A stretch of 64,000 nucleotides of DNA from an uncultured Fibrobacterota bacterium (lineage in GTDB: Bacteria; Fibrobacterota; Chitinivibrionia; Chitinivibrionales; FEN-1185). The stretch covers positions 192,001-256,000 of the forward strand of contig CAVWBU010000021.1 of assembly GCA_963753345.1 (NCBI GenBank), in the 5' to 3' direction. The translations under genes were made by a program, and so were the position numbers. The notes under the pieces were generated by a model. It saw nothing but the letters and a program-made list of their open reading frames with translations. It was not told where the DNA came from and searched no databases. Of this stretch, positions 11,334-26,737 are shown one piece after another. Position 1 is the stretch's first letter, and each line of letters starts with the position of its first letter.

Positions 11334-11614
11334 TTTGTATATTTTGACCTGATGGTTTTGTGGGCTTCCGAATGAGTAATCCCTTTCCCTCCATCTATTT
11401 GTTTTGAGCCAAGTTCAACATCCTGAAGCAGCTCCAATTTTTCCACCATTGAGTCATACGCGGCGACATCGAGCAAAACGGCCGCACTCTTGCCATTTTG
11501 AGTTATCACCAAAGGTCTTTTGGTGTTATGAACTTGTGCAATGAATCCAGCCGCTTTGGACCTGAATTCCGAAACAGGATGCACATCCTCGGCAAACATA
11601 ATTCCTTTTGTCAT
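11330..11614 (-). CDS. Type II antitoxin, Phd/YefM family
   Basis: PVSEFR...RPLVITQNGKSAAVL; 4-bp overlap with the toxin. Confidence 0.9.
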   Translation of the reverse strand: MTKGIMFAEDVHPVSEFRSKAAGFIAQVHNTKRPLVITQNGKSAAVLLDVAAYDSMVEKLELLQDVELGSKQIDGGKGITHSEAHKTIRSKYTK

Positions 11615-11629
11615 AGGGGCTCCTTTAAT

Positions 11630-11680
11630 GGTACGTTATTACGTACCAATTATTATACACTATTCCGTACTATAGCGCAA
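11630..11680 (-). promoter_or_regulatory. Sigma70 promoter and palindromic operator of the TA operon
   Basis: TTGCGC-17 bp-TATAAT (11680-11652) and GGTACGT-n4-ACGTACC palindrome at 11630-11647. Confidence 0.7.
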
Positions 11681-11907
11681 GGCTTTTTCGGTATTATCGG
11701 GTTCGAACGCCGTATAGCGCTGCCGGTCGCTGCGACCGGTCATGTCTTGAACACGAAGTCTGGCCAGATTTCCATTTCTGGTTGTCTTCACTTGTCTTCC
11801 GTTATGAAGATACGCTGTGGAAAATGCATTCGTCCAGATCTTTCAGGGTTGTCTCCCATGCAGGGGAGAGAGGTAGATCATTTGCATGAAGTAAGAAATG
11901 GTGACAT

Positions 11908-12300
11908 GGATGATCCTGCCGCACTGCGGATTGTGGAAGGCGCAGGTGCGGCATCCGTCGCCGGAAGAGAATCCGCCGCCTGAAGCCTAGGCGTCTGGCC
12001 TCGATTACGGATTCACTTCGACGACGCTCAGTGCAGGCTTCGAGAAAACCTGCGCATGAAAAACCAGCCTTTTTTCAAACTTCGATCTTATTCCGGGAGA
12101 CCGGAATTCTCCGGTTTGACAATGGTTAGGGAGAACACCTATATTTTCCCTTGAAGCAGTTTGGTGTCCCGAAGGCGGAAGCGGGGGGATAGATGAGCGT
12201 CTGTGGAGCTTCGGCGACATCCCGTAACCTTCGGCGAAGGGGATAAAGAAACTTTCTTTGTACGCCCACCCGCTCGCGAAAAACAAATTACCTATCAGTA
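11908..12300 (+). mobile_element. Possible remnant 3' end of an IS91-like transposase element
   Basis: Short frame ILPHCGLWK..PPP then LDYGF/FEKTCA; end motif AACAAATTACCTATCA; recalled resemblance only. Confidence 0.35.
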
Positions 12301-12411
12301 TCGGTTGCCGGGATATTGACAGGAGCAATCATAGAGTGTACAATTTGGTTTCCTCTTGTTGTCGCCTGCGAGATGAATTGATTACTCTAGCGGCAGGGTG
12401 CCGAAGTCCAC

Positions 12412-13014
12412 ATGCGAAACATCTCTACTCTCGTTGCCGTTCTTGCTACGTTGGTTCTTGTTGCCTGTTGCGCCCATCTTAGGGGCGTCGAAATGGAATG
12501 GAGGTCGACAGACGATTCCGGGAACTATTCGCCGAGGAATCTCGCAAATTTCGCGGGGCGCACGTACAAACTGGACACGATTGAGGATTGCAGATCTGAG
12601 AAAAAAGATACAATCATTTGGACCGACCACGGCCCTCACACCTGGGACAACCGGCTTATCTACTGGGTAACAACTAAGACTGATATTCCTTCTTTCATCA
12701 TGACCAATTTTCCAAAGGTCTTTGCCATATTCGGTCTTTCTACCTCATCGTCGCCGACCTACGACTACAAGATATCCGGAAAACTTTTGCAATTTGAGGT
12801 GATCGAGAAAGACCTGTACAGAGGAAAAGTAATGATAGAATTCTCAATCCTCGACAAGAACAACGACACGCTTTCCAGGTGTACCGCCATCGGCACGTCA
12901 AACCGATTCGGCCGCGTCTACTCATACGACAATTACATGGAATGTCTTTCGAACGCGGTGAATGCTTGTTTCAATGATTTTCTGTCCAGGTGCGATATCC
13001 CAAAAAGGAAATGA
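12412..13014 (+). CDS. Putative lipoprotein
   Basis: Hydrophobic leader with LVAC lipobox. Confidence 0.7.
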   Translation: MRNISTLVAVLATLVLVACCAHLRGVEMEWRSTDDSGNYSPRNLANFAGRTYKLDTIEDCRSEKKDTIIWTDHGPHTWDNRLIYWVTTKTDIPSFIMTNFPKVFAIFGLSTSSSPTYDYKISGKLLQFEVIEKDLYRGKVMIEFSILDKNNDTLSRCTAIGTSNRFGRVYSYDNYMECLSNAVNACFNDFLSRCDIPKRK

Positions 13015-13237
13015 CTACACCCCTAAAGCAGCTCGCCTTCACTTCACGGTAGCAAACCCGGATCGCGGCCATCGTCCGGTGTCCCTAAGATACGCTTCGG
13101 AAAGCGCGCTCGTCCAGGGGCTTGCGGCAACCTCTCCGCAGTTGCAGACGTTCCTCATTTGACAATAGAGAGCGGAAATACCTATATTTTTTGCCGACGT
13201 CGGTCTCGCCGCACGCCGCAACGCTTCTGAGAGATCC

Positions 13238-14014
13238 ATGAAAAGAATATGCATCTATGCCCACTACGATTCCCGAGGCACGATAAAGGGGTATGTCCGC
13301 CATTGCCTGTCGAATATCCGGAACGAATTCGACGAACTTGTTTTCGTGACCTCCTCCACGCTGGGCCCGTTTGAAAAGAGCAAGATCGCCGGACTTTGCA
13401 CGGCCATACTGGAAGTGGAGAACATTGGCTTTGATTTTTATTCGTGGAAGAAGGGCATCGAAACGGTCCGGGAGCGTCTGAACACCTTCGACGCTCTTGT
13501 CCTCCTCAACTCAAGCGTTTTGGGGCCGGTTTCGCCGCTCGGCAATGTGTTTGCAAAAATGGAGGCGTCGCGTTGCGATTTCTGGGGTATGACGGAGTGC
13601 TTTCTCGTGCGACACCATTTGCAAAGCTACTTTCTCTGCTGCAACGGGCGGATGTGCTCGTCGCGCGCGTTTCGCGAGTATTGGTCGGCGCTCGAACCGC
13701 TGGCTGTCAAGGAGAAAGTGATAAGCGAATACGAAACAGCGTTTACCAGGCATTTCGCGCGCCGTGGTTTCAAGAAGGGCGTCGCCTTCCCGGTGGGAAT
13801 GTTCATTCCCCTTTGGAAACGGATCCTCGACAAAAACCTTGCCAAACGCAACACCACGCTCGTGTTTGCCCCCGAACTGCTGGAGGCGGGAATGCCTTTT
13901 GTCAAGATTCAGCTCTTGGCGTCAAACCCCTTTGGAGCGGATCTGCCGCGCCTCAGGGCATTACTCGAGCAGCGATATCCGGCGGAATACCTCGCCGAGG
14001 CGTGCACGAAATAG
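13238..14014 (+). CDS. Rhamnan synthesis F (RgpF)-like protein
   Basis: IYAHYD, ENIGFDFYSWK, LLNSSVLGP, DFWGMT, HLQSYF, MPFVK. Confidence 0.82.
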   Translation: MKRICIYAHYDSRGTIKGYVRHCLSNIRNEFDELVFVTSSTLGPFEKSKIAGLCTAILEVENIGFDFYSWKKGIETVRERLNTFDALVLLNSSVLGPVSPLGNVFAKMEASRCDFWGMTECFLVRHHLQSYFLCCNGRMCSSRAFREYWSALEPLAVKEKVISEYETAFTRHFARRGFKKGVAFPVGMFIPLWKRILDKNLAKRNTTLVFAPELLEAGMPFVKIQLLASNPFGADLPRLRALLEQRYPAEYLAEACTK

Positions 14015-14176
14015 GCCCCGCGCGGGCCTTTTGCGCCGACGCTGAAGGCTGTGCGTGACAGGATAACAACCGTATCGGGAAGGTCGGTGTGCGGAGCAGC
14101 GGTGACGCCGGGGATTTATATCGACGGGAACAATAAAAGGGTGAGGATCGGGCAGGGCGGCAAGTAGCAACAATCG

Positions 14177-15457
14177 CTACTTTGTTTCATTCAAGGTGAA
14201 GCTCCTCACCGTATCCTTCGGCTTCTTCCCCTTGTAAAATTCCCGCCACGCAAAGTAGAACGCGTCGAGGAGTTCCGATTCGGAAAAGTTCTTCGGCTTG
14301 AAAACCACGTTGGCATGATTCCACAGAGAGTAATTCCTGTGCAGCAGCCTGTTCTCACGGACCACCTGCTCACCGAACTTTGTGCCGGGAAACGGGGTCG
14401 GAATGTAGAATTCCGCAAGGTCAATCGCCGCGTCACGGGTGAAGGCAAGGATGCGCTCGGCCACGCCTTTGTCCTGGTTGTCGAAACCGATGCCGAACGA
14501 CCCGAAGAAATGGATGCCGCTGTCTTCGATCATGCGCACGAGGTTCACGGCTGCCGACCACTGCTCTTTGGGGCACTCCTTGTCAAACAGCGTTTGCGAA
14601 ATCCGGTCGAACCCGAACACGGTGTAGATCGAGGCCGTGCCGCCGGCTGCGAGCTTCCGGTAAAACGCGGGGTCGGGCGCCATCATCATGGTGGAGGAGA
14701 GGAATATCTTTATGTCGCCCAGTTCCGCGGTGCGCTCCATGATCGACAGAAGGAATTTTGCGGGTTTCTTGCCGGGGAGCATCACCGTGTCGTCGGTGAA
14801 GTAGAATTCGCGAAAGGGCATGGAGGCGATGTCGGCCAGTATGTGGTCGACCGGCCGCAGCCGAAACAGGGTTCCGCCCATGTAGGGAACCGGGCATCCC
14901 GCGCATGGCGCGGGGCAGCCGCGCATCACCTGCACAAGGTGCGCCTTCCATCGGTACTTGTCGGGCGAGAAAATGCCGCGCTTGGGAATGGGCATCTTTG
15001 ACAGATCGTAATAGGAGCCCGCTTGGTAGCGTTTTTTAAGCGATCCTTGCGCGGCGTCCTTAAGGATGTCGCTCCACACCAGCTCCGCCTCGCCCACGCA
15101 CACCGAATCCGCATGGAGCAGCGCCTCGTCGGCCATTGCGGTCGGGTGGATGCCGCCGATCACGGTTTTTGTTCCGCGCCTGCGGAACCCGTCGGCGATC
15201 TCGTAGGCGCGCTGCGCCTGCGGGGTAAAGCAGCTTATCACAACGAGGTCGATCTTTTCGTCGAAATCGACGGGGGAGATGTTGTCGTCCGTCAAGGCAA
15301 CGTCGATCGAATCCGGCGTGAGCGCCGCAACAATCGGCAGGGCGAGCGACGGCGGCATGGTGTAGTCGCCGATCACATGGTCTTTGAGTTCCTCCCGAAG
15401 GGACCGATGGTCTTCGAGGAACTTCTTGAATTTCGGATATATGAGCCGCAGTTTCAT
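14177..15457 (-). CDS. B12-binding-domain radical SAM protein
   Basis: N-terminal PPSLALP..AALTP, IGGIHPT; CxxxCxxC (RGCPAPCAGC); TPFPGT. Confidence 0.88.
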   Translation of the reverse strand: MKLRLIYPKFKKFLEDHRSLREELKDHVIGDYTMPPSLALPIVAALTPDSIDVALTDDNISPVDFDEKIDLVVISCFTPQAQRAYEIADGFRRRGTKTVIGGIHPTAMADEALLHADSVCVGEAELVWSDILKDAAQGSLKKRYQAGSYYDLSKMPIPKRGIFSPDKYRWKAHLVQVMRGCPAPCAGCPVPYMGGTLFRLRPVDHILADIASMPFREFYFTDDTVMLPGKKPAKFLLSIMERTAELGDIKIFLSSTMMMAPDPAFYRKLAAGGTASIYTVFGFDRISQTLFDKECPKEQWSAAVNLVRMIEDSGIHFFGSFGIGFDNQDKGVAERILAFTRDAAIDLAEFYIPTPFPGTKFGEQVVRENRLLHRNYSLWNHANVVFKPKNFSESELLDAFYFAWREFYKGKKPKDTVRSFTLNETK

Positions 15458-15461
15458 AGTT

Positions 15462-16892
15462 TTATTCCTGCTTCAGTATCATATCCGCCACTGCCTTGCC
15501 GCTCGACATCACATTGTAAATCCCGCCGCCCGCCTTTGTCCAATGCCCGGCCTGATAGAGATTGGGAATATACGTTGTAAACGGCAGCTTGGATCGTCCG
15601 TACAGGTCGCTGGTGTTCTCGAACCCGTACAGGGCGCCGGCCGTGTTGCCCGTGTAGCGTTCGAACGTGTCCGGTGATGCGACTTCGCAGACGCGGATTT
15701 TCGGGGTAAAGTCGCCGAGGAGTTCCTTCGCCTTTTGAATCATGGCGTCGGCGATGCGTTTCTTTTCGTCGTGCCACGCGATGCCCGGCTGCTGCTTCAC
15801 AAGATGGATGAGCGTGATGCATGCGCCGCGGCCCGGGTCAGGCGGTCTTGCAATCACCAGATGGTCGATGTCGGCGGGAAGGCCGCTTCTGATGCGGCGG
15901 TAGATGGCGTCGTGATCGTTCGATCCGAACCACAGGGTAATGTTTTGTTCCGCTATGCCGGCCGCGTCGCCTTCCACGCCGAGGTAAACGCACACCGCGG
16001 ACACCGACGGCGAAAGGTTTTCCAGCCGGCGCAGCCAGAGCGCCTTGCGCGACGGTTCGGGAACGAGCGTGCGATGCAGAAGATAGGGGCTGATGTTCGA
16101 AACGAAAACTCGGGCGGTAATCTCCTCCCCGCGGTCGCCTACGGCGGCGACCACCCTGCCGTGCTCCATCCTGAGAGAGCGGACCGGCCACGACGTGCGC
16201 ACCTCGCCGCCGCAAGAGGTGACCGCGGCCGAAAGCGCCTGCGCGAGCGCGGCGAACCCGCCTTTGACATAATGCGATCCATCACAGGCGTGGGCGATGA
16301 AGATGAACGCGTTGTAGAACGGGGCGATCGACGGCGATGACCCGCCGAACGGCCAGATCGAACCCAGAAGGAACCGCAGCCGCGGGTCGGCAACGAAATG
16401 CTCGATGTACTCCTTGTACGAACCCGCGGCGCTGACGCCGGGGGACGCGAGTGAGGCCTCGCCGCCCGCGAGATTCCCCTTGTACTGCGTAAACAGCCGC
16501 CGCATGTCGTCAAGAATCGCCCGCACGGCAGTGCGTTCATGCGGGAAGTCGCGGCACAGGGAATCCGTGAGCCCGGCCATGTCTGCGGGGAGCGTGTACG
16601 AAAAACCCGGCGAAAGAACGCGGGCCGTGCTGGTGTTCGGGACGATGTCGAGTTTTTTTCGGACGCCGAGCTGCGCAAGCAGCCCGGATACGAAACCGCT
16701 ATCGCCCATGGAGACCGAATGGACCGAGGAATCGAACGTGAAGGAGTTGCGGGAGAATTCCTGCGCGCAGCCGCCGATCCGGGAAAATCGCTCCAGCACC
16801 GCCGTGCGCATGCCCTGCCGCGACAGGAGCGCCGCGCAGGTGAGCCCGCCGATGCCGGATCCGATGACCGCTGCGTCGAAGTCAGTTGACAA
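15462..16892 (-). CDS. Phytoene desaturase (CrtI)-family FAD oxidoreductase
   Basis: TTG start; VIGSGIGGL..AA.L, IGGCA, SPDTFERYTGN..GALYG, LYQAGHW..GGG. Confidence 0.88.
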   Translation of the reverse strand: MSTDFDAAVIGSGIGGLTCAALLSRQGMRTAVLERFSRIGGCAQEFSRNSFTFDSSVHSVSMGDSGFVSGLLAQLGVRKKLDIVPNTSTARVLSPGFSYTLPADMAGLTDSLCRDFPHERTAVRAILDDMRRLFTQYKGNLAGGEASLASPGVSAAGSYKEYIEHFVADPRLRFLLGSIWPFGGSSPSIAPFYNAFIFIAHACDGSHYVKGGFAALAQALSAAVTSCGGEVRTSWPVRSLRMEHGRVVAAVGDRGEEITARVFVSNISPYLLHRTLVPEPSRKALWLRRLENLSPSVSAVCVYLGVEGDAAGIAEQNITLWFGSNDHDAIYRRIRSGLPADIDHLVIARPPDPGRGACITLIHLVKQQPGIAWHDEKKRIADAMIQKAKELLGDFTPKIRVCEVASPDTFERYTGNTAGALYGFENTSDLYGRSKLPFTTYIPNLYQAGHWTKAGGGIYNVMSSGKAVADMILKQE

Positions 16893-17757
16893 AGGGAATT
16901 TCCTCGTGGAGAAAGTACCATTGGGCGCACCGGGTTCCGAGCAGCGGCTCCAGGTCGTTGTACAGGGACTGGACCAGCATCGGGTCGTCGGCATCGAGCC
17001 GGTGAAGGCGGAGTTCGAATCGCTCGTCGTCTCCCCTCTCGGCAAAGGCGGTGAAAACACGGGCTCCCGGCTGCGCGAATCGCACCAGCCTGTCCAGGCC
17101 GGCGCCGCCCCACACCTGCCTGCGCAAGAGGGTCACCGGCAGCGAGTACGGCGTCTTTTCGTCGAAGACCGCAAGCAGAACGCCGCCGCGCCTGAGCACC
17201 GCGGCCATGTCGAGCGCCGCCGGCCGGTCCGACCCTATTTCGATGAAATTGACAGGAGCGAACATGCCGGACGCCGCCATTGCGCCGCTGCGCGCGCGGG
17301 CCGCATCCGCGAGGCCCGGGGTCGCAAAGCGCAGCGCGCCGGTGACGGGAATGCCGCGGGCCGCGAGCGCCGGGGCGATGCATTCAACCGCGCCGAAGTG
17401 GCACACCGCGATCACGACGCCGCTTGTGCTTCCCGCGTCGGCCGCAAGCGTTTCGAATTCCGGCGGCATGGCGATACGCTCGGTGAGATAGCGGTGGTAG
17501 TCGCCGGGCGAAAGGCACAGCGGCAGCATTTTTTCGTAGTAGTGCAGCAGGACGTTGTTCTGGATTTCGCGGACGAGCGCGCCGGTGGCGGGGATGGAAA
17601 AGGCCCTGAGGTTCCGTGCGATTACCATGGACTCCTCCGGGTATGCGTCGAACCATTCTCTCCCCTTTGTGAAGATCAGGCTGCGCAGCTCCTCCCTGCT
17701 TTTTCTGGGCAGCGACGCGAGAAAATCCGGTGATTGGAGGAAACCTGAGAGTTTCAT
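16882..17757 (-). CDS. LpxL/lysophospholipid acyltransferase-like protein
   Basis: HFGAVE (HxxxxE) motif; C-terminal QWYFLH. Confidence 0.7.
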   Translation of the reverse strand: MKLSGFLQSPDFLASLPRKSREELRSLIFTKGREWFDAYPEESMVIARNLRAFSIPATGALVREIQNNVLLHYYEKMLPLCLSPGDYHRYLTERIAMPPEFETLAADAGSTSGVVIAVCHFGAVECIAPALAARGIPVTGALRFATPGLADAARARSGAMAASGMFAPVNFIEIGSDRPAALDMAAVLRRGGVLLAVFDEKTPYSLPVTLLRRQVWGGAGLDRLVRFAQPGARVFTAFAERGDDERFELRLHRLDADDPMLVQSLYNDLEPLLGTRCAQWYFLHEEIPFVN

Positions 17758-17857
17758 AGGGTTCAAAAATGGATGGCGGCGCCGAAAAAAGCAAAGCGTC
17801 GGCCCTCAATCATGCGCGCCTTACGCCCGGGAGGGAAGGGCGCAGCAGGCTCCACGG

Positions 17858-18118
17858 TCATTTCTTTTGGGCCAGGTACTTTTCAACGGTCGCGGTACAC
17901 TTGTCGATGGTAACGATATTGGGGAATTCGGTCTCGGGGATCGTGATGCCGAATTTTTTTTCCATGGTTGCCAAAACCTCGAGGAGCGCCATTGAATCGA
18001 GGCCCATGTCGTTGATGAAATGCGCATCGTCGGTGATCTTCTCTTCGCTTATCTCCATGTCTTCCGCGATTTCCTTGATCAGGTCGCGTATGGTTGCCTT
18101 GATGTCGGCCGAATTCAT
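17858..18118 (-). CDS. Acyl carrier protein
   Basis: DMGLDSMALLE..EKKFGI; GGGAG RBS. Confidence 0.92.
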   Translation of the reverse strand: MNSADIKATIRDLIKEIAEDMEISEEKITDDAHFINDMGLDSMALLEVLATMEKKFGITIPETEFPNIVTIDKCTATVEKYLAQKK

Positions 18119-18207
18119 CAGCTCTCCCTTACATGGTGATGGTATGGCAGCCCGCAGGCGCCCCCGCTCCTGCGCCAGAAGCAATAAAATATAATATGTG
18201 TTCGGCC

Positions 18208-19407
18208 TTAATTTCTGTTTTTGAGAAGAATACTTCCGCAATACCCGTCGCATGAAAAGGAGTTTACGAGCGCATATTCGGCCGACACGGCATGCCGCGT
18301 GTCGGCCACGAGGTCGATCTCGCGGCACAGCGCATAGCGGCCGCCGGTCCCGCTGATCCTGGTATGCTTCAGGTCGCTCAGGGCGCAGGCAAGGGAAACG
18401 CACGGCGAGGCGCCGATGCATTCGCCGGTTTTCGCCTTGTAAGCGGCAACCGGTGTCGCGGGCAGCAGTTCTTCGAGCGCGAGCGCTTCCATTCCGTCGG
18501 CTGCGGCAACGCCGTTTGCGCTTGCGGCCACGAACCCCACGGCCGATAGGGGAATGCCCGCATCTGCGCAGGCCTGTTTCATCGCATGGCGGGCGCCGTC
18601 GCCGCCGGGGTTGAAGCCGCCCGGACCTCTCTTAGGATCGAAGCAGCTGGCAATGCCCGCGATCTCCGCGACAGGAACCGCGCCGCGCGCCTTTGCGGAT
18701 TCCTCTGTTTCAAGACAGAAAACCGCGCAGCCTTCGCCCGCTACGGTGCCGCCCCCGTCCTTTGCAAACGGCAGGAGCGTTCCTGTTGCAGAAAGAAGCC
18801 CTGTCCTTTCGAGCCCCACGATACCGTAATAGCTTATTTCCTCGAGCCCGCCCGCGATAAGGCACTGTTCGTAGCCGCGACGCAGGAACATGATCGCGTA
18901 GGCCAGCGCGTCGAGCCCGGCATTGAAGGTTGTTGAGACGGTTGAACTGAGAGCGCGAGCGGCGTAGCGGATGTTCGCGTTGGAGGCGGGTGAATTGATG
19001 ACCGTATTGGCGAACGCCTGCGGGTTGACATTGTGCGACCCATTGACAATTGCGTCGGACAAAAAGTCGCCGATGCTGGCGACGCTGCCGAACGCCGTGC
19101 CCACGCAAAGGCCGGGCTTGCGGCCGTCCGGCGCGGATTCGAACAGCCCCTTGCACCCCAGTTCGACGGCCGACAGCAGGAGCTTGGTCGCCCGGTCCTT
19201 GGTGCGCAGGCCTTTCTTTCCGAGAATCGCCTCCGGGTCGAAATTGCCTATCGCGAAGGCCTGCCGCGCTTCGGGAAGCGAGTGGAATTCGAAGTCCTTC
19301 ACCGCGGCTGTCTTCGGCGGCGCAAGGAGCGAGGCGGCCATTGCATCCGGGCTTGTGCCCAGACAGGTTACTGCGGCCGCGTGTGTTATGACGATGTTCG
19401 TGTCCAT
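18208..19407 (-). CDS. Ketosynthase-like protein lacking catalytic residues (chain-length-factor-like)
   Basis: KS fold motifs (GEGCA, NSFS) but STTFNAG replaces TACAAG and ASANG replaces AHGTG. Confidence 0.8.
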   Translation of the reverse strand: MDTNIVITHAAAVTCLGTSPDAMAASLLAPPKTAAVKDFEFHSLPEARQAFAIGNFDPEAILGKKGLRTKDRATKLLLSAVELGCKGLFESAPDGRKPGLCVGTAFGSVASIGDFLSDAIVNGSHNVNPQAFANTVINSPASNANIRYAARALSSTVSTTFNAGLDALAYAIMFLRRGYEQCLIAGGLEEISYYGIVGLERTGLLSATGTLLPFAKDGGGTVAGEGCAVFCLETEESAKARGAVPVAEIAGIASCFDPKRGPGGFNPGGDGARHAMKQACADAGIPLSAVGFVAASANGVAAADGMEALALEELLPATPVAAYKAKTGECIGASPCVSLACALSDLKHTRISGTGGRYALCREIDLVADTRHAVSAEYALVNSFSCDGYCGSILLKNRN

Positions 19408-19416
19408 GCTTCCGCC

Positions 19417-20646
19417 TTATCCCCCGAATTTTCCGAGAACAAGCGTGGAATTGTTGCCGCCGAACGCATACGCGTTCGAGACCGCGACCCGCACCTCGGC
19501 GTTGCGCGCGGTATTGGGCACATAGTCAAGGTCGCAGTCGGGGTCCGGCTCGCGGTAATTGATGGTCGGCAGAATAACGCCCCGGTTGACCATAAGGGCG
19601 CAGGCCGCGGCCTCTATGGCCGAGGCCGCGCCCATGGTATGGCCGATCATGGACTTAATTGACGATACGGGAATCGATTTCGCCCTGTTGCCGAACACGG
19701 CCTTGATGATAAGCGTTTCGGTCTTGTCGTTTTCCTCGGTCCCGGTGCCGTGGGCGCTTATGTAGTCGACGCTTTCGGGCGTTACGGCCGCGTTGGCAAG
19801 CGCCCTTTTCAGGGCAAGGATGCCGCCGCTGCCGGAAGGGTCGGGGATGGTCATCTTGAACGCGTCGCACCCGAGGCCGTAGCCGAGGACCTCGGCGTAG
19901 AGTCTTGCGCCGCGGCTCTTCGCATGAGTCAATGATTCGAGCGCAAGCACGCCCGCGCCTTCGCCCACGCACATGCCGTCGCGGTTTTTGTCGAACGGTC
20001 TGCACAGGTCCTTTGCGGTGGCCATCAGGCGGTTGAACCCGGTGAACGCGATTTTCGAAATCGGGTCGCTGCCGCCGGCGATCGCCACGTCGACAATCCC
20101 GGTGGCGATGAGGTCGAATGCGTAACCGATAGCGTAATTGCCCGCGGCGCAGGCCGTGGGGATCATGATGACCGGTCCGCAAGCCCCCACGCTCCGGGCC
20201 ACGTTTGCGGAAATGACGCCGCACGGGTACTGGGCAGGAAGGTCGGCCGGAACAGCGCCGGGAGCGCCCTGGCCGCGGTACAGCATCTCGATTCCCTGTT
20301 CGAGTATCTGCGGTTCGCCCATAGTGGTGCCCATGCTCACCGCCACGCGGTACGGGTCGAGTTTCAGTTTGTCAAGGCCGGCGTCGCCGAGCGCCATCTT
20401 CGCCGCGGCGCAGGCAAACTGGCTCGAGCGTCCCATGGATGAAATCTGCTGCGGCGAGAGAAATGCGGCGGGTGAGAAGTCCTTCACCTCGGCGCCCACG
20501 CTGGTGCGAAAGCCTGACGTATCAAAGGCGGTGATGGGCGCGATTCCGTTAATGCCTTTGCACGCGGCATTCCAGAATGCTTCGGTGCCTGTGCCGATGG
20601 GGGAGACGACACCCAGTCCTGTGACGACAATCCTGTCTTTTTTCAT
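19417..20646 (-). CDS. fabF: Beta-ketoacyl-ACP synthase (FabF-like)
   Basis: TACAAG, SAHGTGT, KSMIGHTMGA, NAYAFGGNN. Confidence 0.93.
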   Translation of the reverse strand: MKKDRIVVTGLGVVSPIGTGTEAFWNAACKGINGIAPITAFDTSGFRTSVGAEVKDFSPAAFLSPQQISSMGRSSQFACAAAKMALGDAGLDKLKLDPYRVAVSMGTTMGEPQILEQGIEMLYRGQGAPGAVPADLPAQYPCGVISANVARSVGACGPVIMIPTACAAGNYAIGYAFDLIATGIVDVAIAGGSDPISKIAFTGFNRLMATAKDLCRPFDKNRDGMCVGEGAGVLALESLTHAKSRGARLYAEVLGYGLGCDAFKMTIPDPSGSGGILALKRALANAAVTPESVDYISAHGTGTEENDKTETLIIKAVFGNRAKSIPVSSIKSMIGHTMGAASAIEAAACALMVNRGVILPTINYREPDPDCDLDYVPNTARNAEVRVAVSNAYAFGGNNSTLVLGKFGG

Positions 20647-20767
20647 GAGGCCTGTTCAGATGGAACGATAAACGACAAAAAACGGGCGCGTGCCCGAAGA
20701 AAAGGGCAAAATGCGGCTAAACTTCTAAAATAGTAAAAATAAAGGCGTGATTCAACACAAAGAATAA

Positions 20768-21505
20768 TCAGGCGCTCAGGCCTCCGTCCACGGTTAGTAC
20801 GCTTCCGGTGACATACTGCGCCTTGTCGGAGACGAGAAAGGAGACACAATCGGCCACTTCACGGGGCGTTCCCATCCGCCCGACGGGAATGGATTTCCTG
20901 ATTTCCTCAAGCTGTTTTTCGGTCATTTTCGCGGTCATGTCGGTCTCGATGAAGCCGGGCGCGATGCACACCACCCTCACGCCGGTCTTTGCAACTTCCC
21001 TGGCAAGCGCCCTGGTGAATCCGATGATGCCGGCTTTCGAAGCGCAGTAATTGGTCTGGCCGGCAACTCCCGAAATACCGCCCACCGAGCCGATGTTCAC
21101 CACGCACCCTTTTTTGTTCTTCATGAAATGGCCGATGAGCGCGCGGGTCACGTTGAAATAGCCGGTGAGATTGGTGGCGATGACGTCGTCCCAATCCTCC
21201 TTCGGCATGATGAACAGGCTCTTGTCGCGTGTGATCCCCGCGTTGTTGACAAGCGCGTCGATCCCGCCGAGCTTCTCTTTTGCAAATGCGACCAGCTTGT
21301 CCACATGGTCCGGCCGGGAAACATCGGCCTCGAACGGCCACACCATGCACCCATCTTTGGAAAGGCGGTCGGCAAGCTTCACCGAAGCTTCCCTGCCGCT
21401 CCTGTAACTGAACACCACGCGGTTGCCTTCGGCAGCCAGCGTTTCGACTATTGCTCTGCCGATCCCCTTGGACCCGCCAGTAATGATGATATTTTTGCCT
21501 GACAT
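20768..21505 (-). CDS. fabG: 3-oxoacyl-ACP reductase
   Basis: TGGSKGIG, NNAGITRD, NYCASKAG, PGFIETDMT. Confidence 0.92.
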   Translation of the reverse strand: MSGKNIIITGGSKGIGRAIVETLAAEGNRVVFSYRSGREASVKLADRLSKDGCMVWPFEADVSRPDHVDKLVAFAKEKLGGIDALVNNAGITRDKSLFIMPKEDWDDVIATNLTGYFNVTRALIGHFMKNKKGCVVNIGSVGGISGVAGQTNYCASKAGIIGFTRALAREVAKTGVRVVCIAPGFIETDMTAKMTEKQLEEIRKSIPVGRMGTPREVADCVSFLVSDKAQYVTGSVLTVDGGLSA

Positions 21506-21629
21506 GATTACTCCTTAAGAGAAGATTCACCACAAAGACACAGAGAAGAAAAATTCACTCAGTTTACAAACCGGAGACAAAGATACAAAATCATAAAGAA
21601 GCAAGGTGAAAGTGCAACTTAATTTACAA

Positions 21630-21751
21630 CCGGTGCTCGTGGGTGCCGCCGCAACAATGCTTGGTCTCGCAGCTGCTTTGTCAAGGCGGCCACCCAGGAG
21701 GGGGTGCCGGAGAACGCCGAAGGCGCTCGCAGGCAGGGGGATACTTCCCCC
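21630..21751 (-). repeat. Repeat module A (solo)
   Basis: CGTGGGTGCC...CACCCAGGAGGGGGT...GGGGGATACTTCCCCC. Confidence 0.85.
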
Positions 21752-21779
21752 ACATACATACTCTTCTATCATCAACTAT

Positions 21780-23123
21780 TCAACTTTTCAACCCTTTTCT
21801 CACCGCATCCTTCACCTTCTGCGAATATTCCCGTGATTTTAAAATATTTTCCGCCTTCTGCCGGAACGAAGACAGCGATTCTTCCAGGTCGGCTCCGGCA
21901 AAAAACTCCTTCCACAGCCTTATAAACCCCTGCCGCAGTTTGTCCTCCGAAATAAGCTTCGGCCTGAACACGATGTTGGCGCAATTGTACTTTTTCCAGT
22001 CGCGCGGAAGGATGAACCGGCCTTCCGCCTCGATGCGCTTCCAGAACGGCGTTCCCGGAAAGGGCGTCGCGATGAAGAACTCGGCGGTTTTCACCTGCGC
22101 CTGCCTGCAGAAGTCAAGGATGGTGTCGAACTGGTCGTTCGCCCATGGTGTCGAACCCCACGCCGAACGACCCGAAGAACCGGATGCCGCGGTCTTCGAG
22201 GGCGGCGAGCGAGGTCGAGCGTACGCCGCCATACTGCCGGGTCGCGGCGATAGAACCGCACGCTCACCGGGTCGCTCGCGAACACCGTGTACATGCTCGC
22301 CGCGCCCGCCGAGGCCAGGGCGTCGAGGAACGCGGGATCGTTGTGCATCGCCGGCGAGCAGGACAGAAACATCCTCACGCCGAGCCCTTTGATGCGCTCG
22401 CATAAGTCAATCATGTACCTGGTGATGCGCGGCCGGTTGAGCATCACCATGTCGTCGGTGACGTAGAATTCCTTGCCCGCGAGGGCGGCGATTTCCGCGA
22501 CCACGGATTCAAGAGGCCGCAGGCGGATTTTCGTGTCCTGGTACAGCGGTATATTGCACCACTCGCACCCGAACGGGCAGCCGCGCGTGATCGACACGAG
22601 CGACGCGTGCCAGTCGTATTTGTCCTCAACGTCGAAAATGCCGGGCTTTGCGGATGCGATCTGCTCCGGCAGCGGTACGGTTTCCGCTTTGTATAGCTTT
22701 TTGAGAGAGCCGGCCGCAACATCGGCTAGGATCTCCGGCCATACCGTGTCGGCCTCGCCCACGCACACGGCTCGTGCAATGGAGCGCCGCCTCCTCGGGC
22801 ATAGTTGACGGATGCATGCCGCCGGCGATCACGGTTTTCCCGCGCCGCAGAAACTCGTCGCCGATCTCGTAGGCAAACCCCGCCTGCGGCGTGAAATAGC
22901 TTATGGCGACGACGTCGGCGTCGTCGCTAAAGTCAACCGGCTCGATGTTCTGGTCTATCACCCGGAAGGAGACGTCCGCCGGCAGGAGGTTGGCGAGAAT
23001 GGGAATGCCCAGCGCCGGCGGCATGCGGAACGCCCACGTGGCGGCAACCGCGGGCAGCTCCGCAAGCTCGGGATAGGTTTCGAGGAATTTTTCGAACCTG
23101 GGATAGACAAAGGTGACTTTCAT
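21780..23123 (-). pseudogene. Second B12-binding radical SAM, split by three apparent +1 insertions (about 22770, 22201, 22138); possibly intact in vivo
   Basis: MKVTFVYPRF..PPALG, GGMHPS; RGCPFGCEWC; restored FFGSFGVGFD; TPFPGT; paralogous to 14177-15457. Confidence 0.8.
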
Positions 23124-23285
23124 GAAGGAAAAATAGTTTACAACGGCGCGCATGGGGTGGCCGGCGTGGGGCCCGTTGACCTGGCAATTTGACCAAGCCG
23201 GCATCGTACGCCGCGGAATTCCCTTTTTTCAAGGGTGTTTCAATATGTATATTGCATCCATCCACCTGCCTGCAACGGCATTGAT

Positions 23286-23415
23286 AAAGGGCAAACGACA
23301 TAAGGGAAGGTGCGCAGCACCATTACCAAACCCTTAGGGAACGCAGTGACAAAGGGCAAACGACATAATGGAAGGTGCGCAGCACCATTACCAAACCCTT
23401 AAGGAACGCAGTGAC
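23286..23415. repeat. Tandem duplication of a 65-bp unit (module D); third copy 29071-29135, diverged copies about 9471 and 3908
   Basis: AAAGGGCAAACGACATAA.GGAAGGTGCGCAGCACCATTACCAAACCCTTA.GGAACGCAGTGAC x2. Confidence 0.9.
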
Positions 23416-23428
23416 AAAAGGGGCCAAC

Positions 23429-24115
23429 GTGAAGGAATATCCTAAAAACCTGCCGGTATCCGTTGCGTTTCTTGTTGCGCTGTTCTTCAATGCAGGGATT
23501 TTCGCGGCGCCTGCCGCGATTCCCCGGACCGCCGTTTCCGATACCGTCAAACCGGACGCCGTGTACGTCCCCAATTCGTCCGCCGAAAAAACCGCGGAGC
23601 CGGTGGTTATTCCAAACTCCAGGGCAGGAGGCATCGACTCGGCCTCAATGGAGCATCCCTCCGAGACCATCATCGAAGAGGGACAGAGCCCGCGTCAAGA
23701 CCTTTCAGCGAAGCATGCGGCTCCGGTTTCCGGCAACCAACGGGTGCGTCACAAGGGAAGAATTATCACCGGCGCCGCGTTGTTCGGCGTTTCCTACGGC
23801 CTGGCGCTCGCCGTCTCAACCACGGTGATCTCGGAAGGCTCCACATCGTCAGGCAGCAACGCGGCAGGATACCTGTGCATCCCCGTGCTCGGCCCGATAA
23901 TCCTGTATTTTTCCGAGCCTTCCTCCGGCGCCGACGCCACGCCCGTGGCGCTTCTCTGCGCAGGCTGGTCAGTGGCGCAGGGCATCGGTCTCTGGCTGCT
24001 TATTTCCGGGATTGTGGGAACTCCTGCGACGTCGCAAATGTCGGCGCTGCCTTTCACCGTCGAGCCGCTTGTCATGAAGGACAGGGCAGGGCTCACGTTC
24101 AGAATGCGGCTGTAA
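23429..24115 (+). CDS. Hypothetical exported/membrane protein
   Basis: GTG start, signal-like leader, C-terminal hydrophobic segments. Confidence 0.6.
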   Translation: MKEYPKNLPVSVAFLVALFFNAGIFAAPAAIPRTAVSDTVKPDAVYVPNSSAEKTAEPVVIPNSRAGGIDSASMEHPSETIIEEGQSPRQDLSAKHAAPVSGNQRVRHKGRIITGAALFGVSYGLALAVSTTVISEGSTSSGSNAAGYLCIPVLGPIILYFSEPSSGADATPVALLCAGWSVAQGIGLWLLISGIVGTPATSQMSALPFTVEPLVMKDRAGLTFRMRL

Positions 24116-24452
24116 GCAGGGGATGCACGAGGCTGGTCTGACATTGCAGAATGGTGCGGGCAATCATGAAGAAATTCTCAAGTCGGACCCAATACCGTAT
24201 GCGATCCGCACAAAAGCGCCCATCTCTTAAAACCTTGTTACTTTCATTTTCCATCATTCTGCTCGTGCTTGCCATCACGTTCGCAAGAATGTTCCGGACA
24301 TTCCACTCATTCTCTCCGAAATCATCTGCAAGCCATCCTCGCTTCAGATAGTGTTGCAGTACCGGTATTGAGGTTTTGGTTCTTGTCCAATGTTATATTT
24401 TTGTGATCATTTAACCATCAACTCATTCGTTCTTCAGAAGAGAGAGAACAGC

Positions 24453-24971
24453 ATGCCCTCTGAAACACTTCCTTTGACCAAGCGGCCCCTCGATATTGCC
24501 ATTGTCGGGTTTTTCCTTTTCAATGCCGTGTTCATCACCTACTTCTTCGACCTCGAACAGATTGTGATACCCGACACGTCGCATTTTATCTACCCGCTGT
24601 GGCCTCCGCGTTTTCTCGTCGACACGGCGCACTGGTGGGGAAGGCATTTTGATCCGCTCCTCTATGCGCGACCGGTGTGGTGGCGAGCGACGATATGGAT
24701 CGATGTGCTCCTTTTCGGCCCGTTCTACTTTGTCGCAATTTATGCATTTGTAAAAGGCAGGAACTGGATACGCGTTCCCAGCCTTCTGTACTCGGCGGTG
24801 ATGCTCACCAACGTCACCATCATTCTGAGCGAAGAGATAGGGGGGCCGCACGCAACGCCCGCGCTGATGGCCGTGATCGGCGCAAATGCCTCGTGGATCA
24901 TTTTTCCCGTTCTTATCATCCAGCGCATGTGGCGCAGCGAGCATCCGTTTTCGCACGAAGCGTCGCGCTGA
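24453..24971 (+). CDS. EXPERA (emopamil-binding protein / TM6SF2-like) membrane protein
   Basis: Four TM segments; DLEQ..WW..FDPLL..RP.W...WID..FGPFY; ANASWIIFP. Confidence 0.75.
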   Translation: MPSETLPLTKRPLDIAIVGFFLFNAVFITYFFDLEQIVIPDTSHFIYPLWPPRFLVDTAHWWGRHFDPLLYARPVWWRATIWIDVLLFGPFYFVAIYAFVKGRNWIRVPSLLYSAVMLTNVTIILSEEIGGPHATPALMAVIGANASWIIFPVLIIQRMWRSEHPFSHEASR

Positions 24972-25004
24972 CTTCATCCAACAACGGCGGCGGGAACAAG
25001 AACC

Positions 25005-25829
25005 ATGCGCAACAGCAAATTTACAGAGAAATACGGGCCCTGGGCCATCGTTGCCGGCGCCTCGGAAGGTTTGGGCGCGGCTTTTGCCGAAGAATCCGCC
25101 AGGCGGGGCCTCAATGTGGTCCTGGTCGCGCGCTCGAGAGACAAATTAATCTCTCTGCAGCATGCGCTTGCGGACCGATATAAAATAGAGTGCCGTATTC
25201 TTGTGCAGAATTTGGCGGATCAAGACGCAGCAGCGGTTCTGGACCGGCAGACCTCGGATATCGATATCGGGCTTATGATATACAATGCGGCGTTGTCGCT
25301 CATCGGGCCGTATCTGTCCTTCCCGGAGGATTTGCACCGTGCTACCGTGGCGACCAATTGCCAGGCGCCTGCGCTGTGCGCCTACCTTTTTGGAAAGCGG
25401 TTCAAAACGCGCGGGCGCGGCGGCATGATTTTGATGTCGTCTCTGGCCGGATTTCAGGGCAGCCCTTTTATCGCACATTACGCGGCCACCAAGGCATACA
25501 CCATGGTGCTCGCCCAGGGCATAAGCAGGGAATACGCGGCCGACAACATCGATGTGCTTGCCTGCTGCGCCGGCCCGACCGGCACTCCCGGATATTACCG
25601 GGCGGGGAACGTTCCTGGGAAATCGCCTTTGGTGATGCGTCCGCAAACCGTTGCGCGCATGGCGCTTGACAGAATCCACAGGCGCGGCATTTTTGTTCCG
25701 GGATTTTTCAACGCGCTTGGCGCTTTCGCGCTCCAGAGGCTGCTTCCGCGCGGCGTTGCAGTCGGCATTATTGCGCGATCGACGCAAAAAATGTCCTTTG
25801 TTCCATCGGACAGCCGGGGACCGCAATGA
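25005..25829 (+). CDS. SDR oxidoreductase (17-beta-HSD/KAR-like)
   Basis: KYGPWAIVAGASEGLG, YNAA, YAATKA. Confidence 0.88.
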   Translation: MRNSKFTEKYGPWAIVAGASEGLGAAFAEESARRGLNVVLVARSRDKLISLQHALADRYKIECRILVQNLADQDAAAVLDRQTSDIDIGLMIYNAALSLIGPYLSFPEDLHRATVATNCQAPALCAYLFGKRFKTRGRGGMILMSSLAGFQGSPFIAHYAATKAYTMVLAQGISREYAADNIDVLACCAGPTGTPGYYRAGNVPGKSPLVMRPQTVARMALDRIHRRGIFVPGFFNALGAFALQRLLPRGVAVGIIARSTQKMSFVPSDSRGPQ

Positions 25830-26737
25830 CCGCGCGACCCCTCCGCCATGGCGCCTTGTCCAAACGCACATCCGTTGTTCTCTGCTGCGTCGTCTACCTC
25901 ATCGCGGCTGTAAGCGCCTGCGGCACTGGGTTGCTCTTCACCGGCCGACACCCGCTGGCCGTCGCCGCCCTGGCCGACATCACTGCAACGGCGGCGGTAT
26001 TTCTCTTCAGCGTCATTCTTGACAATTCGAGCATCTATGATCCCTATTGGAGCGTGGCGCCGGCAGGCATTGCTGCTTATTTCCTCTGCCAATCGCCCGG
26101 GTTTCCCTCCGTGCGTCAGGTTCTTCTGATGCTCCTCGTGGCATGGTGGGCCGCTCGGCTTACCGGGAACTGGCTGCTGCGCTGGCGCGGAATGGGGGAC
26201 GAGGACTGGCGATATGCGGACTTCCGTTTCTCCCGTGCATACTGGCTGGTGAGCTTTGCGGGTTTTCACGTGTTTCCGACCATCGCCGTTTTCGCAGGGT
26301 GTCTTCCGCTTGTTCCCGCGTTGCTTTCCCCGTCGCGTTCCCCTGGCGCTTGGGACGCAATCGCGCTGGTCGTCACCGTCCTGGGCATAATCATCGAGAT
26401 GAAGGCCGACAGTGATCTGCGGATCTTCAGGCGCCGGCACCCGACCACGCGCGAGCTCTTGACATCAGGGATATGGTCCTGGTGCCGGCACCCAAACTAT
26501 CTCGGGGAAGTGACCTTCTGGTGGGGGATCGCCCTGTTCGGTATTTCGGCGAATCCTTCATGGTGGTGGACGGCGGCCGGCGCGGGCTTGATAACCGCGC
26601 TTTTCCTGTTCATTAGCGCTCCCATGATGGACAAGCATATGTCAAGCAGGTATCCCGGCTACCGTGAGCGGATGAAACAGGTGCCGGGAATCCTGCCGCT
26701 GGGGTTGTTTCGCCGCACCGGCATCCAACCACTTTGA
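25826..26737 (+). CDS. DUF1295 (steroid 5-alpha-reductase-like) membrane protein
   Basis: NSSIYDPYWS, EDWRY, ADSDL, WSWCRHPNYLGE. Confidence 0.88.
   Translation: MTARPLRHGALSKRTSVVLCCVVYLIAAVSACGTGLLFTGRHPLAVAALADITATAAVFLFSVILDNSSIYDPYWSVAPAGIAAYFLCQSPGFPSVRQVLLMLLVAWWAARLTGNWLLRWRGMGDEDWRYADFRFSRAYWLVSFAGFHVFPTIAVFAGCLPLVPALLSPSRSPGAWDAIALVVTVLGIIIEMKADSDLRIFRRRHPTTRELLTSGIWSWCRHPNYLGEVTFWWGIALFGISANPSWWWTAAGAGLITALFLFISAPMMDKHMSSRYPGYRERMKQVPGILPLGLFRRTGIQPL

Follow-up and report, generated by a model that had tools for sequence, protein, structure and literature searches.

Does a compact set of fatty-acid synthase, radical SAM (rSAM) and phytoene-desaturase-like genes found outside the anammox planctomycetes specify a dedicated lipid, and could that lipid be a ladderane? 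The question arises from an operon in the window, by which we mean the whole stretch of 64,000 nucleotides analysed. We lean, with confidence slightly above even, towards a dedicated type II line that places a radical-SAM- and flavin-tailored acyl chain on an envelope lipid. The initial annotation had described eight co-oriented genes at 14177-23123; its coordinates and gene content are right, and all eight of its protein-family assignments hold. The features are as follows.

14177-15457, minus strand: rSAM-B, 426 aa, B12-binding domain and radical SAM domain with a CX3CX2C motif, intact
15462-16892, minus strand: CrtI/CrtISO/RetSat-like FAD flavoenzyme, 476 aa (protein P0242)
16882-17766, minus strand: LpxL/LpxM/PatA-family acyltransferase, by fold match and HX4E motif
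17858-18115, minus strand: dedicated ACP, 85 aa, DS-type phosphopantetheine attachment site
18208-19407, minus strand: CLF (dead KS), Phe/Ser/Glu in place of Cys/His/His
19417-20646, minus strand: active KS, Cys-His-His triad
20768-21505, minus strand: FabG-type 3-oxoacyl-ACP reductase (adh_short_C2, TIGR01830)
21780-23123, minus strand: rSAM-A, B12/radical SAM gene, frame broken by three +1 insertions
29323-33680, minus strand: ABC-2 exporter genes, two permeases and two ATPases, one ATPase frameshifted

In the order of transcription from rSAM-A, the genes are separated by 274, 121, 9, 92 and 91 nt, an 11-nt overlap and 4 nt; the 9-nt gap lies between KS and CLF, the overlap joins the acyltransferase to the CrtI-like gene, and the last 4 nt separate the latter from rSAM-B. 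When the window is compared with its near-identical relative L041, the seven intact cluster genes show dN/dS values of 0.04-0.19. By its sequence relationships the host is a Chitinivibrionales-like Fibrobacterota bacterium of the FCB group, in line with the FCB-like host proposed initially: named homologs come from Chitinivibrionales or Chitinispirillaceae, and a T9SS sorting domain is encoded in the window, outside the cluster.

One gene had been read too simply. Listed initially as a single intact gene, rSAM-A is not one open frame, and its three frameshifts had been missed. A tblastn search with rSAM-B as query recovers four separate pieces of it, which lie in frames -2/-3/-1/-2, and alignment to the intact L041 ortholog (L041:932-2272, 446 aa) locates three single extra bases near 22768, 22209 and 22137. 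Over the long pieces it is 42-47% identical to its paralog rSAM-B. The three fragments compared have dN/dS values of 0.10, 0.15 and 0.06 against L041 and are still under purifying selection, so the breakage reflects either an error of the assembly or an inactivation that happened very recently. If the frameshifts are real, the strain runs the pathway without rSAM-A, and the cluster may be decaying in this genome, with the pathway inactive or altered. Decay would fit the crowding of three insertions inside 632 bp of one gene, with zero in the other seven, and the presence of a second frameshifted gene, the ABC ATPase, 9 kb away; however, the fragments are about as constrained as the intact genes, the other seven cluster genes are undamaged, and indel errors of assembly would give an identical picture. 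We regard decay as a genuine possibility, but a doubtful one.

The synthase core points to a dedicated line. The KS keeps its Cys/His/His residues and passes NF005589 (406.7 bits, cutoff 387), whereas the CLF has Phe/Ser/Glu at the same alignment columns and adopts a FabF fold in its predicted model (pLDDT 90.9). An active KS beside a paralog lacking the triad is the arrangement expected of type II KS/CLF genes, and the two products would probably associate as a KS/CLF heterodimer. In the CLF of aromatic type II PKS systems the catalytic-Cys position is occupied by Gln; no Gln is found at this column in the window or in the Fibrobacterota orthologs, which have Phe. The ACP matches PP-binding (47.6 bits) and falls under every NCBIfam ACP cutoff, and the FabG matches adh_short_C2 (227.9 bits) and TIGR01830 (305.3 bits, over the cutoff of 297.75). 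Together with this ACP and FabG, the KS/CLF pair would make an ACP-bound chain of controlled length, for which FabZ would here need to come from the housekeeping FAS; in most relatives FabZ is encoded in the cluster.

The nearest known counterpart is the anammox "Cluster I", the candidate ladderane cluster, composed of amxACP, amxFabZ, amxFabFmut, amxFabF2, a phytoene-dehydrogenase-like enzyme and a B12 radical SAM (Rattray 2009; Dietl 2023; Granatino 2026 preprint, as far as their available text goes); on the latter two sources the initial annotation had described this composition correctly. According to the available text of the preprint, the two anammox KS proteins associate as a KS/CLF-like heterodimer with malonyl-ACP decarboxylating activity (Granatino 2026 preprint). 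Among solved structures, the window KS and CLF are closest to 9s5h, the KS matching 9s5h_B at 483.8 bits and the CLF matching 9s5h_C at 169.6 bits (next match, 103.7). The code 9s5h does not occur in the main text of that preprint; however, at the six positions that Table 2 of Rattray gives for Kuste3606, 9s5h_C has Val, Asn, Tyr, Gly, Lys and Glu, a 6/6 match. Because of these residues and the heterodimer described in the preprint, 9s5h is almost certainly the amxFabF2/amxFabFmut heterodimer.

The two clusters have in common the dedicated ACP, the active and dead KS, the CrtI-family flavoenzyme and the B12-domain radical SAM, and both dead KS proteins carry a Lys...Thr-Gly-Glu-Cys stretch at the position of the second His. 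They differ in that the window has KS followed by CLF while the anammox dead copy lies upstream, and the Cys and first-His positions of the dead KS are Phe/Ser in the window but Val/Asn in anammox, going by the available anammox descriptions. The window adds FabG, the PatA/LpxL-like acyltransferase and a second rSAM paralog, lacks FabZ, and belongs to a fermentative Fibrobacterota lineage, not to an anammox planctomycete. Its ACP scores higher against ordinary ACPs (about 44.2 bits) than against the S. brodae amxACP 7qv0_D (36.2) or 9s5i_E (37.7). Likewise, the FabZ of relatives (L025) is closer to the canonical FabZ 6n3p_A (131.5 bits) than to amxFabZ 8ayd, 8ayb and 7qv0 (100-104), and passes TIGR01750 fabZ (159.4 bits, cutoff 155.15). 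The window rSAMs also fall outside TIGR04072 (rSAM_ladder_B12), which from its name we take to be an anammox enzyme family: rSAM-B reaches 37.1 and the intact rSAM-A ortholog 38.0 bits, both far below the cutoff of 360. The anammox resemblance proposed initially thus stands for the KS-CLF pair, but not for the ACP, the relatives' FabZ or the rSAMs.

Could the cluster nevertheless make true ladderanes, lipids with concatenated cyclobutanes, the product proposed for its anammox counterpart? The KS/CLF kinship and the common set of ACP, KS, dead KS, phytoene-dehydrogenase-like enzyme and B12-rSAM would suit this idea, which we consider highly improbable given the ACP, FabZ and rSAM scores. In addition, the available texts report ladderanes only from anammox bacteria (including Granatino 2026 preprint; PMC9902471), and treat the connection of the anammox cluster with ladderanes as itself unproven (Dietl 2023; Granatino 2026 preprint). 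Clusters called "ladderane" by antiSMASH have been found in non-anammox MAGs of Fibrobacterota, Myxococcota, Planctomycetota and other phyla, with no product assigned, and no anatomy given for the Fibrobacterota clusters, in the available text (Geller-McGrath et al. 2023, PMC9902471). Our locus is probably of the same kind, and antiSMASH would presumably give the window cluster that label. Hence the initial description of an apparently uncharacterised pathway is right in that no product has been assigned, but the novelty is reduced: in what is available of PMC9902471, this kind of cluster is already in print for Fibrobacterota MAGs, only uncharacterised.

The same synthase could also yield an APE/flexirubin-like polyene lipid without the aryl head group, in which KS/CLF, KR and DH acting without an enoyl reductase would give a polyenoyl-ACP, decorated by the flavoenzyme and rSAMs, anchored to an outer-membrane lipid by the LPLAT-type acyltransferase and exported by MMPL. 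APE/flexirubin clusters comprise aryl-starter enzymes, a thioesterase, a dehydratase pair, a LolA-like gene, a glycosyltransferase, KS/CLF, ACP, KR, LPLAT and MMPL. The second-best PDB match of the window KS, after 9s5h_B, is the ishigamide polyene KS 6kxd_A (358 bits); FabG reaches 253.1 bits with FlxB, the flexirubin reductase model; 18 related loci carry FabZ but no enoyl reductase, and 14 carry MMPL; and in a Bacteroidota locus (L054) a family rSAM neighbours a pair of CrtI-like genes and a fused MMPL-acyltransferase-methyltransferase gene. On the other hand, a Pfam scan of the cluster and 40 other window ORFs found no aryl-starter enzymes, thioesterase, dehydratase pair, LolA-like gene or glycosyltransferase, FabG stays under the FlxB cutoff of 340 while exceeding that of ordinary FabG, and FabZ has been lost in the compact clade. 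We therefore judge a polyene product unlikely. A highly reducing type II PKS such as the ishigamide Iga11/Iga12 system (PDB 6kxd) resembles the window in its active KS with a non-catalytic partner and its discrete ACP and KR, but the window CLF matches 6kxd_A at only 71.7 bits, and the amide-forming and other tailoring genes of that system are absent from the window cluster. B12-rSAM and CrtI-like tailoring are not known to form part of it.

In the tailored envelope lipid that we favour, the carrier-bound chain would be modified on the ACP by the flavoenzyme, which may desaturate, isomerise or saturate it, and by the two paralogous B12-domain rSAMs, for which C-methylation is the most likely chemistry and C-C bond formation or rearrangement is conceivable. 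The flavoenzyme, whose anammox counterpart would be Kuste3607, matches Amino_oxidase (79.3 bits, cutoff 19.8). Among its distant homologs are proteins annotated as prolycopene isomerase and retinol saturase; the 120 homologs listed include none with an anammox name, and most of them are unnamed. Membership in the CrtI phytoene desaturase subfamily TIGR02734 was rejected (138.1 bits, cutoff 238.1). rSAM-B matches PF02310 (46.4 bits, cutoff 32.1) and PF04055 (29.7 bits, cutoff 29.5), and C181, C185 and C188 of its CX3CX2C core are invariant; with an N-terminal B12-binding domain before this core, it would be placed among class B radical SAM enzymes. The rSAMs reach none of the curated NCBIfam cutoffs, so that no chemistry can be assigned from these, a point against the scheme. 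Natural fusions occur between CrtI and rSAM-B, in frame, in five loci (L007, L010, L021, L034, L045), between rSAM-A and CrtI in P0362, and between an rSAM and KS in P0369 and P0371; therefore, the tailoring enzymes are tied to the synthase.

The last step of our preferred scheme would be carried out by the acyltransferase, which may transfer the finished acyl group from the ACP to an envelope lipid or glycolipid, at one of its hydroxyls. Neither Pfam nor NCBIfam gives a match for the window protein, but its L023 ortholog matches PF03279 (38.2 bits, cutoff 22.3; E 1.2e-9), and H123 and E128 of the HX4E motif are invariant in 21/21 aligned orthologs. Its AlphaFold model (pLDDT 93.8) retrieves PatA (E 2.7e-12) and LpxM (E 8.3e-11) in Foldseek, with TM values of 0.64-0.68 to 5f31, 5oce and 5knk. 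The protein thus shares the fold and the HX4E dyad of LpxL/LpxM and PatA, which bears out the "LpxL-like" call, but differs from them in its low sequence identity (16-18%) and in lacking a Pfam hit of its own. The 24 orthologs found for it all lie in Fibrobacterota loci.

The arrangement is more than chance, because of the 73 loci fetched, 21 have CLF and ACP adjoining a family rSAM; no fewer than 21 related loci thus repeat the gene set. The identical eight genes in identical order are found in L036, L037 and L041, and L035 has the same set plus one extra gene. Family rSAM loci also come from Fibrobacterota, Myxococcota and Planctomycetota, besides the Bacteroidota example. The set had been called minimal; it is rather a derived form without the FabZ and MMPL exporter of its relatives, and in this compact clade the cluster was found to encode neither a FabZ nor an enoyl reductase, thioesterase or malonyl transferase, a point against a self-contained line.

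Many genomes split the set into rSAM-A-FabG-FabZ-KS-CLF-ACP-CrtI and rSAM-B-acyltransferase, the latter placed apart from the former in at least nine assemblies, which also counts against a single tailored-lipid line. The two modules might merely be neighbours, the first making one product and the second being an independent envelope-lipid pair working without this ACP, as in a lipid A-type secondary acylation combined with radical tailoring. In 11 loci rSAM-B and the acyltransferase occur as a pair by themselves, and in nine assemblies the synthase module lies on another contig. Moreover, since neither FAS genes nor an acyltransferase gene adjoin the seven Planctomycetota rSAM-B homologs, rSAM-B may use a substrate from outside this synthase. 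Yet both modules co-occur in those nine assemblies and are joined in one operon in at least seven loci, in three different gene orders; CrtI-like genes are fused to rSAM-A as well as to rSAM-B; and in the window the acyltransferase overlaps the CrtI-like gene, with rSAM-B following closely. Separate functions consequently seem distinctly unlikely to us.

For the tailored envelope lipid, the broken rSAM-A of this assembly is a further difficulty, as is the cultured relative Chitinispirillum alkaliphilum (kin, and not an established carrier of the cluster), for which the available description gives ordinary fatty acids and two unidentified polar lipids. The product would be exported by MMPL in most relatives, where its gene immediately precedes rSAM-A in 11 loci, and perhaps by an ABC-2 system in the compact clade. 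An ABC-2 permease gene occupies the position directly upstream of rSAM-A in L035 and L037, and the ABC-2 exporter genes of the window are possibly linked to the cluster.

The cluster at 14177-23123 consists of eight reading frames co-oriented on the minus strand, listed here in the order of transcription.

23123-21780, minus strand: rSAM-A, a B12-domain radical SAM gene, first in transcription order
21505-20768, minus strand: FabG (adh_short_C2, 227.9 bits; NCBIfam TIGR01830, 305.3 bits against a cutoff of 297.75)
20646-19417, minus strand: ketosynthase, KS (NF005589, 406.7 bits, above the cutoff of 387)
19407-18208, minus strand: CLF, a second KS-fold protein
18115-17858, minus strand: ACP, 85 aa
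17766-16882, minus strand: acyltransferase (ACYLTRANSFERASE), 294 aa, with no Pfam or NCBIfam match of its own
16892-15462, minus strand: CrtI-family flavoprotein (Amino_oxidase, 79.3 bits; crtI_fam, 138 bits, below the cutoff of 238)
15457-14177, minus strand: rSAM-B, a paralog of rSAM-A (B12-binding, 46.4 bits; Radical_SAM, 29.7 bits)

From rSAM-A on, the genes are separated by 274, 121, 9, 92, and 91 nt, an 11-nt overlap, and 4 nt; the G+C content is 59-64% in the cluster and 48-52% in the left-hand DNA. When 24 KS-fold sequences are aligned, the triad columns hold Cys, His, and His in KS and Phe, Ser, and Glu in the neighboring CLF, and therefore the pairing of an active with a dead ketosynthase described in the initial annotation holds. 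Both rSAM enzymes have CX3CX2C motifs and B12-binding domains, and the distant relatives of the CrtI-like flavoenzyme are named carotenoid isomerase and retinol saturase. Promoter-like sites numbered 7, where 3.2 ± 1.6 were expected, and terminator-like sites numbered 13, where 13.3 were expected; the Rfam scan returned no cobalamin riboswitch, one tRNA being its sole match.

The rSAM-A gene had been taken as a plain gene, its breaks being overlooked. A tblastn search with rSAM-B recovered it in four pieces (frames -2, -3, -1, and -2), the three long ones being 42-47% identical to rSAM-B, and comparison with the intact 446-aa ortholog of L041, a near-identical related locus from another genome, showed that the window has one base too many at each of three sites (near 22768, 22209, and 22137), none of them in a long homopolymer. 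The other L041 proteins are 89-99% identical to those of the window. Measured against L041, dN/dS is 0.10, 0.15, and 0.06 for the rSAM-A fragments and 0.04-0.19 for the seven intact genes; all cluster genes are under purifying selection. About 9 kb from rSAM-A, an ABC ATPase (31550-32297, minus strand) has a frameshift inside its ABC_tran domain, such that it is split into two overlapping frames with ORFs of 171 and 134 aa; with two genes of the window thus broken, indel errors in the assembly are possible. The breaks in rSAM-A are thus either an assembly error or a very recent inactivation, and we cannot tell the two apart. Decay of the locus in this genome, of which the broken rSAM-A would be the sign, is possible but doubtful when set beside the selection on all cluster genes.

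The host is a Chitinivibrionia-type member of the Fibrobacterota: nearly all named homologs of rSAM-B and CLF come from Chitinivibrionales, Chitinispirillaceae, or 'Fibrobacter sp.' MAGs, and a T9SS sorting domain is present elsewhere in the window. A single scan of species-representative genomes with the rSAM-B family alignment yielded 73 loci, which we annotated with the window proteins; in 21 of them CLF (at least 46% identity) and ACP adjoin a family rSAM. The eight genes recur in the window's order in loci L036, L037, and L041, and L035 has the same eight plus a third B12-rSAM of 694 aa. All eight are also found in L025, L027, and L039, in another order and together with FabZ and a metallo-beta-lactamase-fold gene, and L023 and L034 are without rSAM-A and have a second CrtI paralog added. 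In 18 Fibrobacterota loci FabZ separates FabG from KS; the window, L035, L036, L037, and L041 lack it. Given the fuller gene sets of the relatives, the version in the window is compact and derived, and the conserved system to which it belongs is larger. The third rSAM of L035 was seen at this one locus only, at 5540-7624 between ACP and acyltransferase, and its best match, a KedN5-type C-methyltransferase, is weak at 92 bits where the cutoff is 700.

The pair of rSAM-B and acyltransferase is found by itself at 11 loci, and in 9 of these cases another contig of the assembly carries rSAM-A-FabG-FabZ-KS-CLF-ACP(-CrtI). Synteny in relatives, on which the initial annotation had made its reading depend, is kept for the core; for rSAM-B and the acyltransferase, which often form a separate locus, it is kept in part. 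This two-module organization of the Fibrobacterota system is new within the literature searched. It could also reflect two independent functions that became neighbors, which we regard as improbable beside a set of gene fusions. At L007, L010, L021, L034, and L045 the reading frame of the CrtI-like gene continues into that of rSAM-B, the fusion of L034 giving a stop-free translation of 927 residues, and among homologous proteins from database searches rSAM-A is fused to CrtI in P0362 (931 aa) and an rSAM to a KS in P0369 (917 aa) and P0371 (1253 aa). The fusions are the strongest indication that the rSAMs, the flavoenzyme, and the ketosynthase act on one substrate line.

The rSAM-A family is large, with 893 proteins at E <= 1e-30 when the intact rSAM-A was searched against 1.8 billion representatives. 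In a tree of 79 family members, the rSAM-A side (31 rows) stands apart from the rSAM-B side (48 rows) and includes Fibrobacterota, two Spirochaetota, three Bacteroidota, one Myxococcota-labeled row, and one unlabeled row. One rSAM-A-side member, from Paludibacteraceae (L054:11265-21180), lies beside an AMP-ligase, a 4Fe-4S protein, and an AAT/C45-like protein, together with two CrtI-like genes and an MMPL-acyltransferase-methyltransferase fusion; this locus, of a lipid or pigment type, is related to the cluster but distinct from it.

The acyltransferase had been called LpxL-like, and this description is borne out. The His-x4-Glu motif is invariant in 21 aligned orthologs, the ortholog in L023 matches Lip_A_acyltrans (E 1.2e-9), and the AlphaFold model of the window protein (pLDDT 93.8, pTM 0.92) finds structural matches in PatA of mycobacteria (E 2.7e-12) and LpxM of Acinetobacter (E 8.3e-11). 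The PatA/LpxL-type transfer step that this fold predicts is new within the literature searched.

By their sequences, the cluster encodes a KS/CLF pair, an ACP, a ketoreductase, and an acyl-ACP-type acyltransferase with its catalytic dyad, and a transporter gene adjoins it in relatives. In the proposed pathway, the dedicated ACP would carry a chain built to a set length by the KS/CLF heterodimer; tailoring of the bound chain would fall to the flavoenzyme and the rSAMs, and the acyltransferase would transfer it to a hydroxyl group on an envelope lipid or glycolipid, the lipid product then being exported. For the radical SAM step, the repertoire of class B enzymes leads us to a rough division in which C-methylation would take somewhat less than half of the weight, C-C bond formation or rearrangement about a quarter, and other chemistry slightly more than that quarter. 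An aryl-less APE/flexirubin-like polyene lipid, which could draw on the same KS/CLF pair, ACP, and ketoreductase, is an unlikely product. This reading and those of two functions, of decay, and of ladderane synthesis are not mutually exclusive.

The candidate ladderane cluster of anammox bacteria, Cluster I, is described as containing amxACP, amxFabZ, a dead amxFabFmut, an active amxFabF2, a phytoene-dehydrogenase-like enzyme, and a cobalamin radical SAM (Dietl 2023; Granatino et al. 2026 preprint), and the preprint reports that amxFabF2 and amxFabFmut pair as a heterodimer resembling KS/CLF, which decarboxylates malonyl-ACP with a preference for short chains (Granatino et al. 2026 preprint). 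Against all PDB sequences, the best match of the window KS was 9s5h_B (483.8 bits; second, the ishigamide KS 6kxd_A, 358) and that of CLF was 9s5h_C (169.6 bits; next, 103.7). Both are chains of one entry, whose sister entry 9s5i also includes an 80-aa ACP. At six positions of the anammox dead FabF Kuste3606 in Rattray's Table 2, 9s5h_C has the Kuste3606 residues Val, Asn, Tyr, Gly, Lys, and Glu, from which we infer that 9s5h is the anammox amxFabF heterodimer. The window CLF shares with 9s5h_C the Lys and a Thr-Gly-Glu-Cys stretch but differs at the other four positions. The CLF model, compared by Foldseek with a PDB library to 2026-04-08 that does not include 9s5h, matched generic FabF folds. 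The kinship of the KS/CLF pair to the anammox heterodimer thus appears specific, and is new within the literature searched.

As far as the comparisons of ACP, FabZ, and the rSAMs reach, this kinship is confined to KS/CLF. The window ACP scores higher with ordinary ACPs (44.2 bits) than with the S. brodae amxACP 7qv0_D (36.2), the FabZ of the relatives higher with canonical FabZ (131.5 bits) than with amxFabZ (100-104 bits), and rSAM-B and the intact rSAM-A ortholog reach 37-38 bits on the NCBIfam model named rSAM_ladder_B12, whose cutoff is 360. An ESM Atlas search with the L041 rSAM-A and the protein P0132 gave generic B12-rSAM and KS clusters and no anammox lead. It is a rather remote prospect that the Chitinivibrionia cluster is an evolutionary sister of Cluster I, with the trio of KS/CLF, CrtI-like enzyme, and B12-rSAM carrying out a radical reaction common to both, which would form a C-C bond or a ring on a short chain bound to ACP, and true ladderane synthesis by the window cluster is very improbable. 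Planctomycetota/'Brocadiia' homologs of rSAM-B (57-59%) were considered as a bridge to anammox. The idea was rejected because FAS and acyltransferase genes are lacking within 10 kb at their 7 loci (L001-L006, L040) and because these MAG proteins branch together within the rSAM-B clade of Fibrobacterota (SH-aLRT 97), a nesting that suggests transfer of rSAM-B between phyla.

Similar clusters outside anammox bacteria were already noted in 2009 (Rattray 2009), and in situ expressed antiSMASH 'ladderane' BGCs from Fibrobacterota and eight other groups were reported in 2023, no product being assigned to them (PMC9902471). Within the literature searched, we found no characterized system with KS/CLF, B12-rSAM, and a CrtI-like enzyme, and only the anammox preprint for KS/CLF with a cobalamin radical SAM. 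The proposal of an uncharacterized pathway stands within these searches, and the anatomy of the Fibrobacterota system, with its fusions, is new within the same literature. [quoted passage not shown] Ladderane biosynthesis is described as unsolved for more than 20 years, its progress blocked because anammox bacteria lack genetics and the radical SAM enzyme has not been made heterologously (Dietl 2023; Granatino et al. 2026 preprint). The Fibrobacterota cluster, whose hosts are fermentative, is conserved and widespread, and its KS/CLF is nearest to the anammox pair among solved structures, such that it offers a comparative handle on the shared core, with naturally fused tailoring enzymes as candidates perhaps easier to express. 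Its products are probably acyl lipids of a new class, tailored by radical SAM enzymes and belonging to the Gram-negative envelope. Strain ANBcel5, a cultured Chitinispirillaceae relative (PMC11700989), has a 69% rSAM-B homolog, the comparison being on rSAM-B alone; if the sister relationship to Cluster I were true, cultivable, fast-growing relatives of this kind would be the first tractable model for ladderane-type chemistry.

An MMPL transporter gene is the immediate upstream neighbor of rSAM-A at 11 loci, and 3 further loci have it at another place; in L035 (3-350) and L037 (5-673) the upstream place is taken by an ABC-2 permease, which may reflect an exporter swap. In the window, an ABC-2 exporter operon (29323-33680, minus strand) is co-oriented with the cluster, its permease lying 6.1 kb further upstream than in L035 and L037. 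The stretch between rSAM-A and the ABC-2 genes (23205-29322, about 6.1 kb) encodes a membrane protein, an EXPERA/EBP-like protein, an SDR, a DUF1295 steroid-reductase-like protein, a LamG protein, and a methyltransferase, and has no counterpart at this place in L035 or L037. The EXPERA-SDR-DUF1295 genes were rejected as cluster members because they are present in no related locus; they look like a separate lipid- or sterol-type modification module. On the other side, a class I/II aminotransferase (2362-3582, plus strand), the convergent immediate neighbor of the cluster in 11 related loci, is parted from it by 10.6 kb of lower-GC DNA (3583-14176, 48-54%) with surface and glycan-type genes (beta-helix, RgpF) and hypotheticals, which is probably an insertion. 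A radical SAM/SPASM-domain gene at 47270-48409 (plus strand), after an MFS transporter and a dienelactone hydrolase, is unrelated to the cluster.
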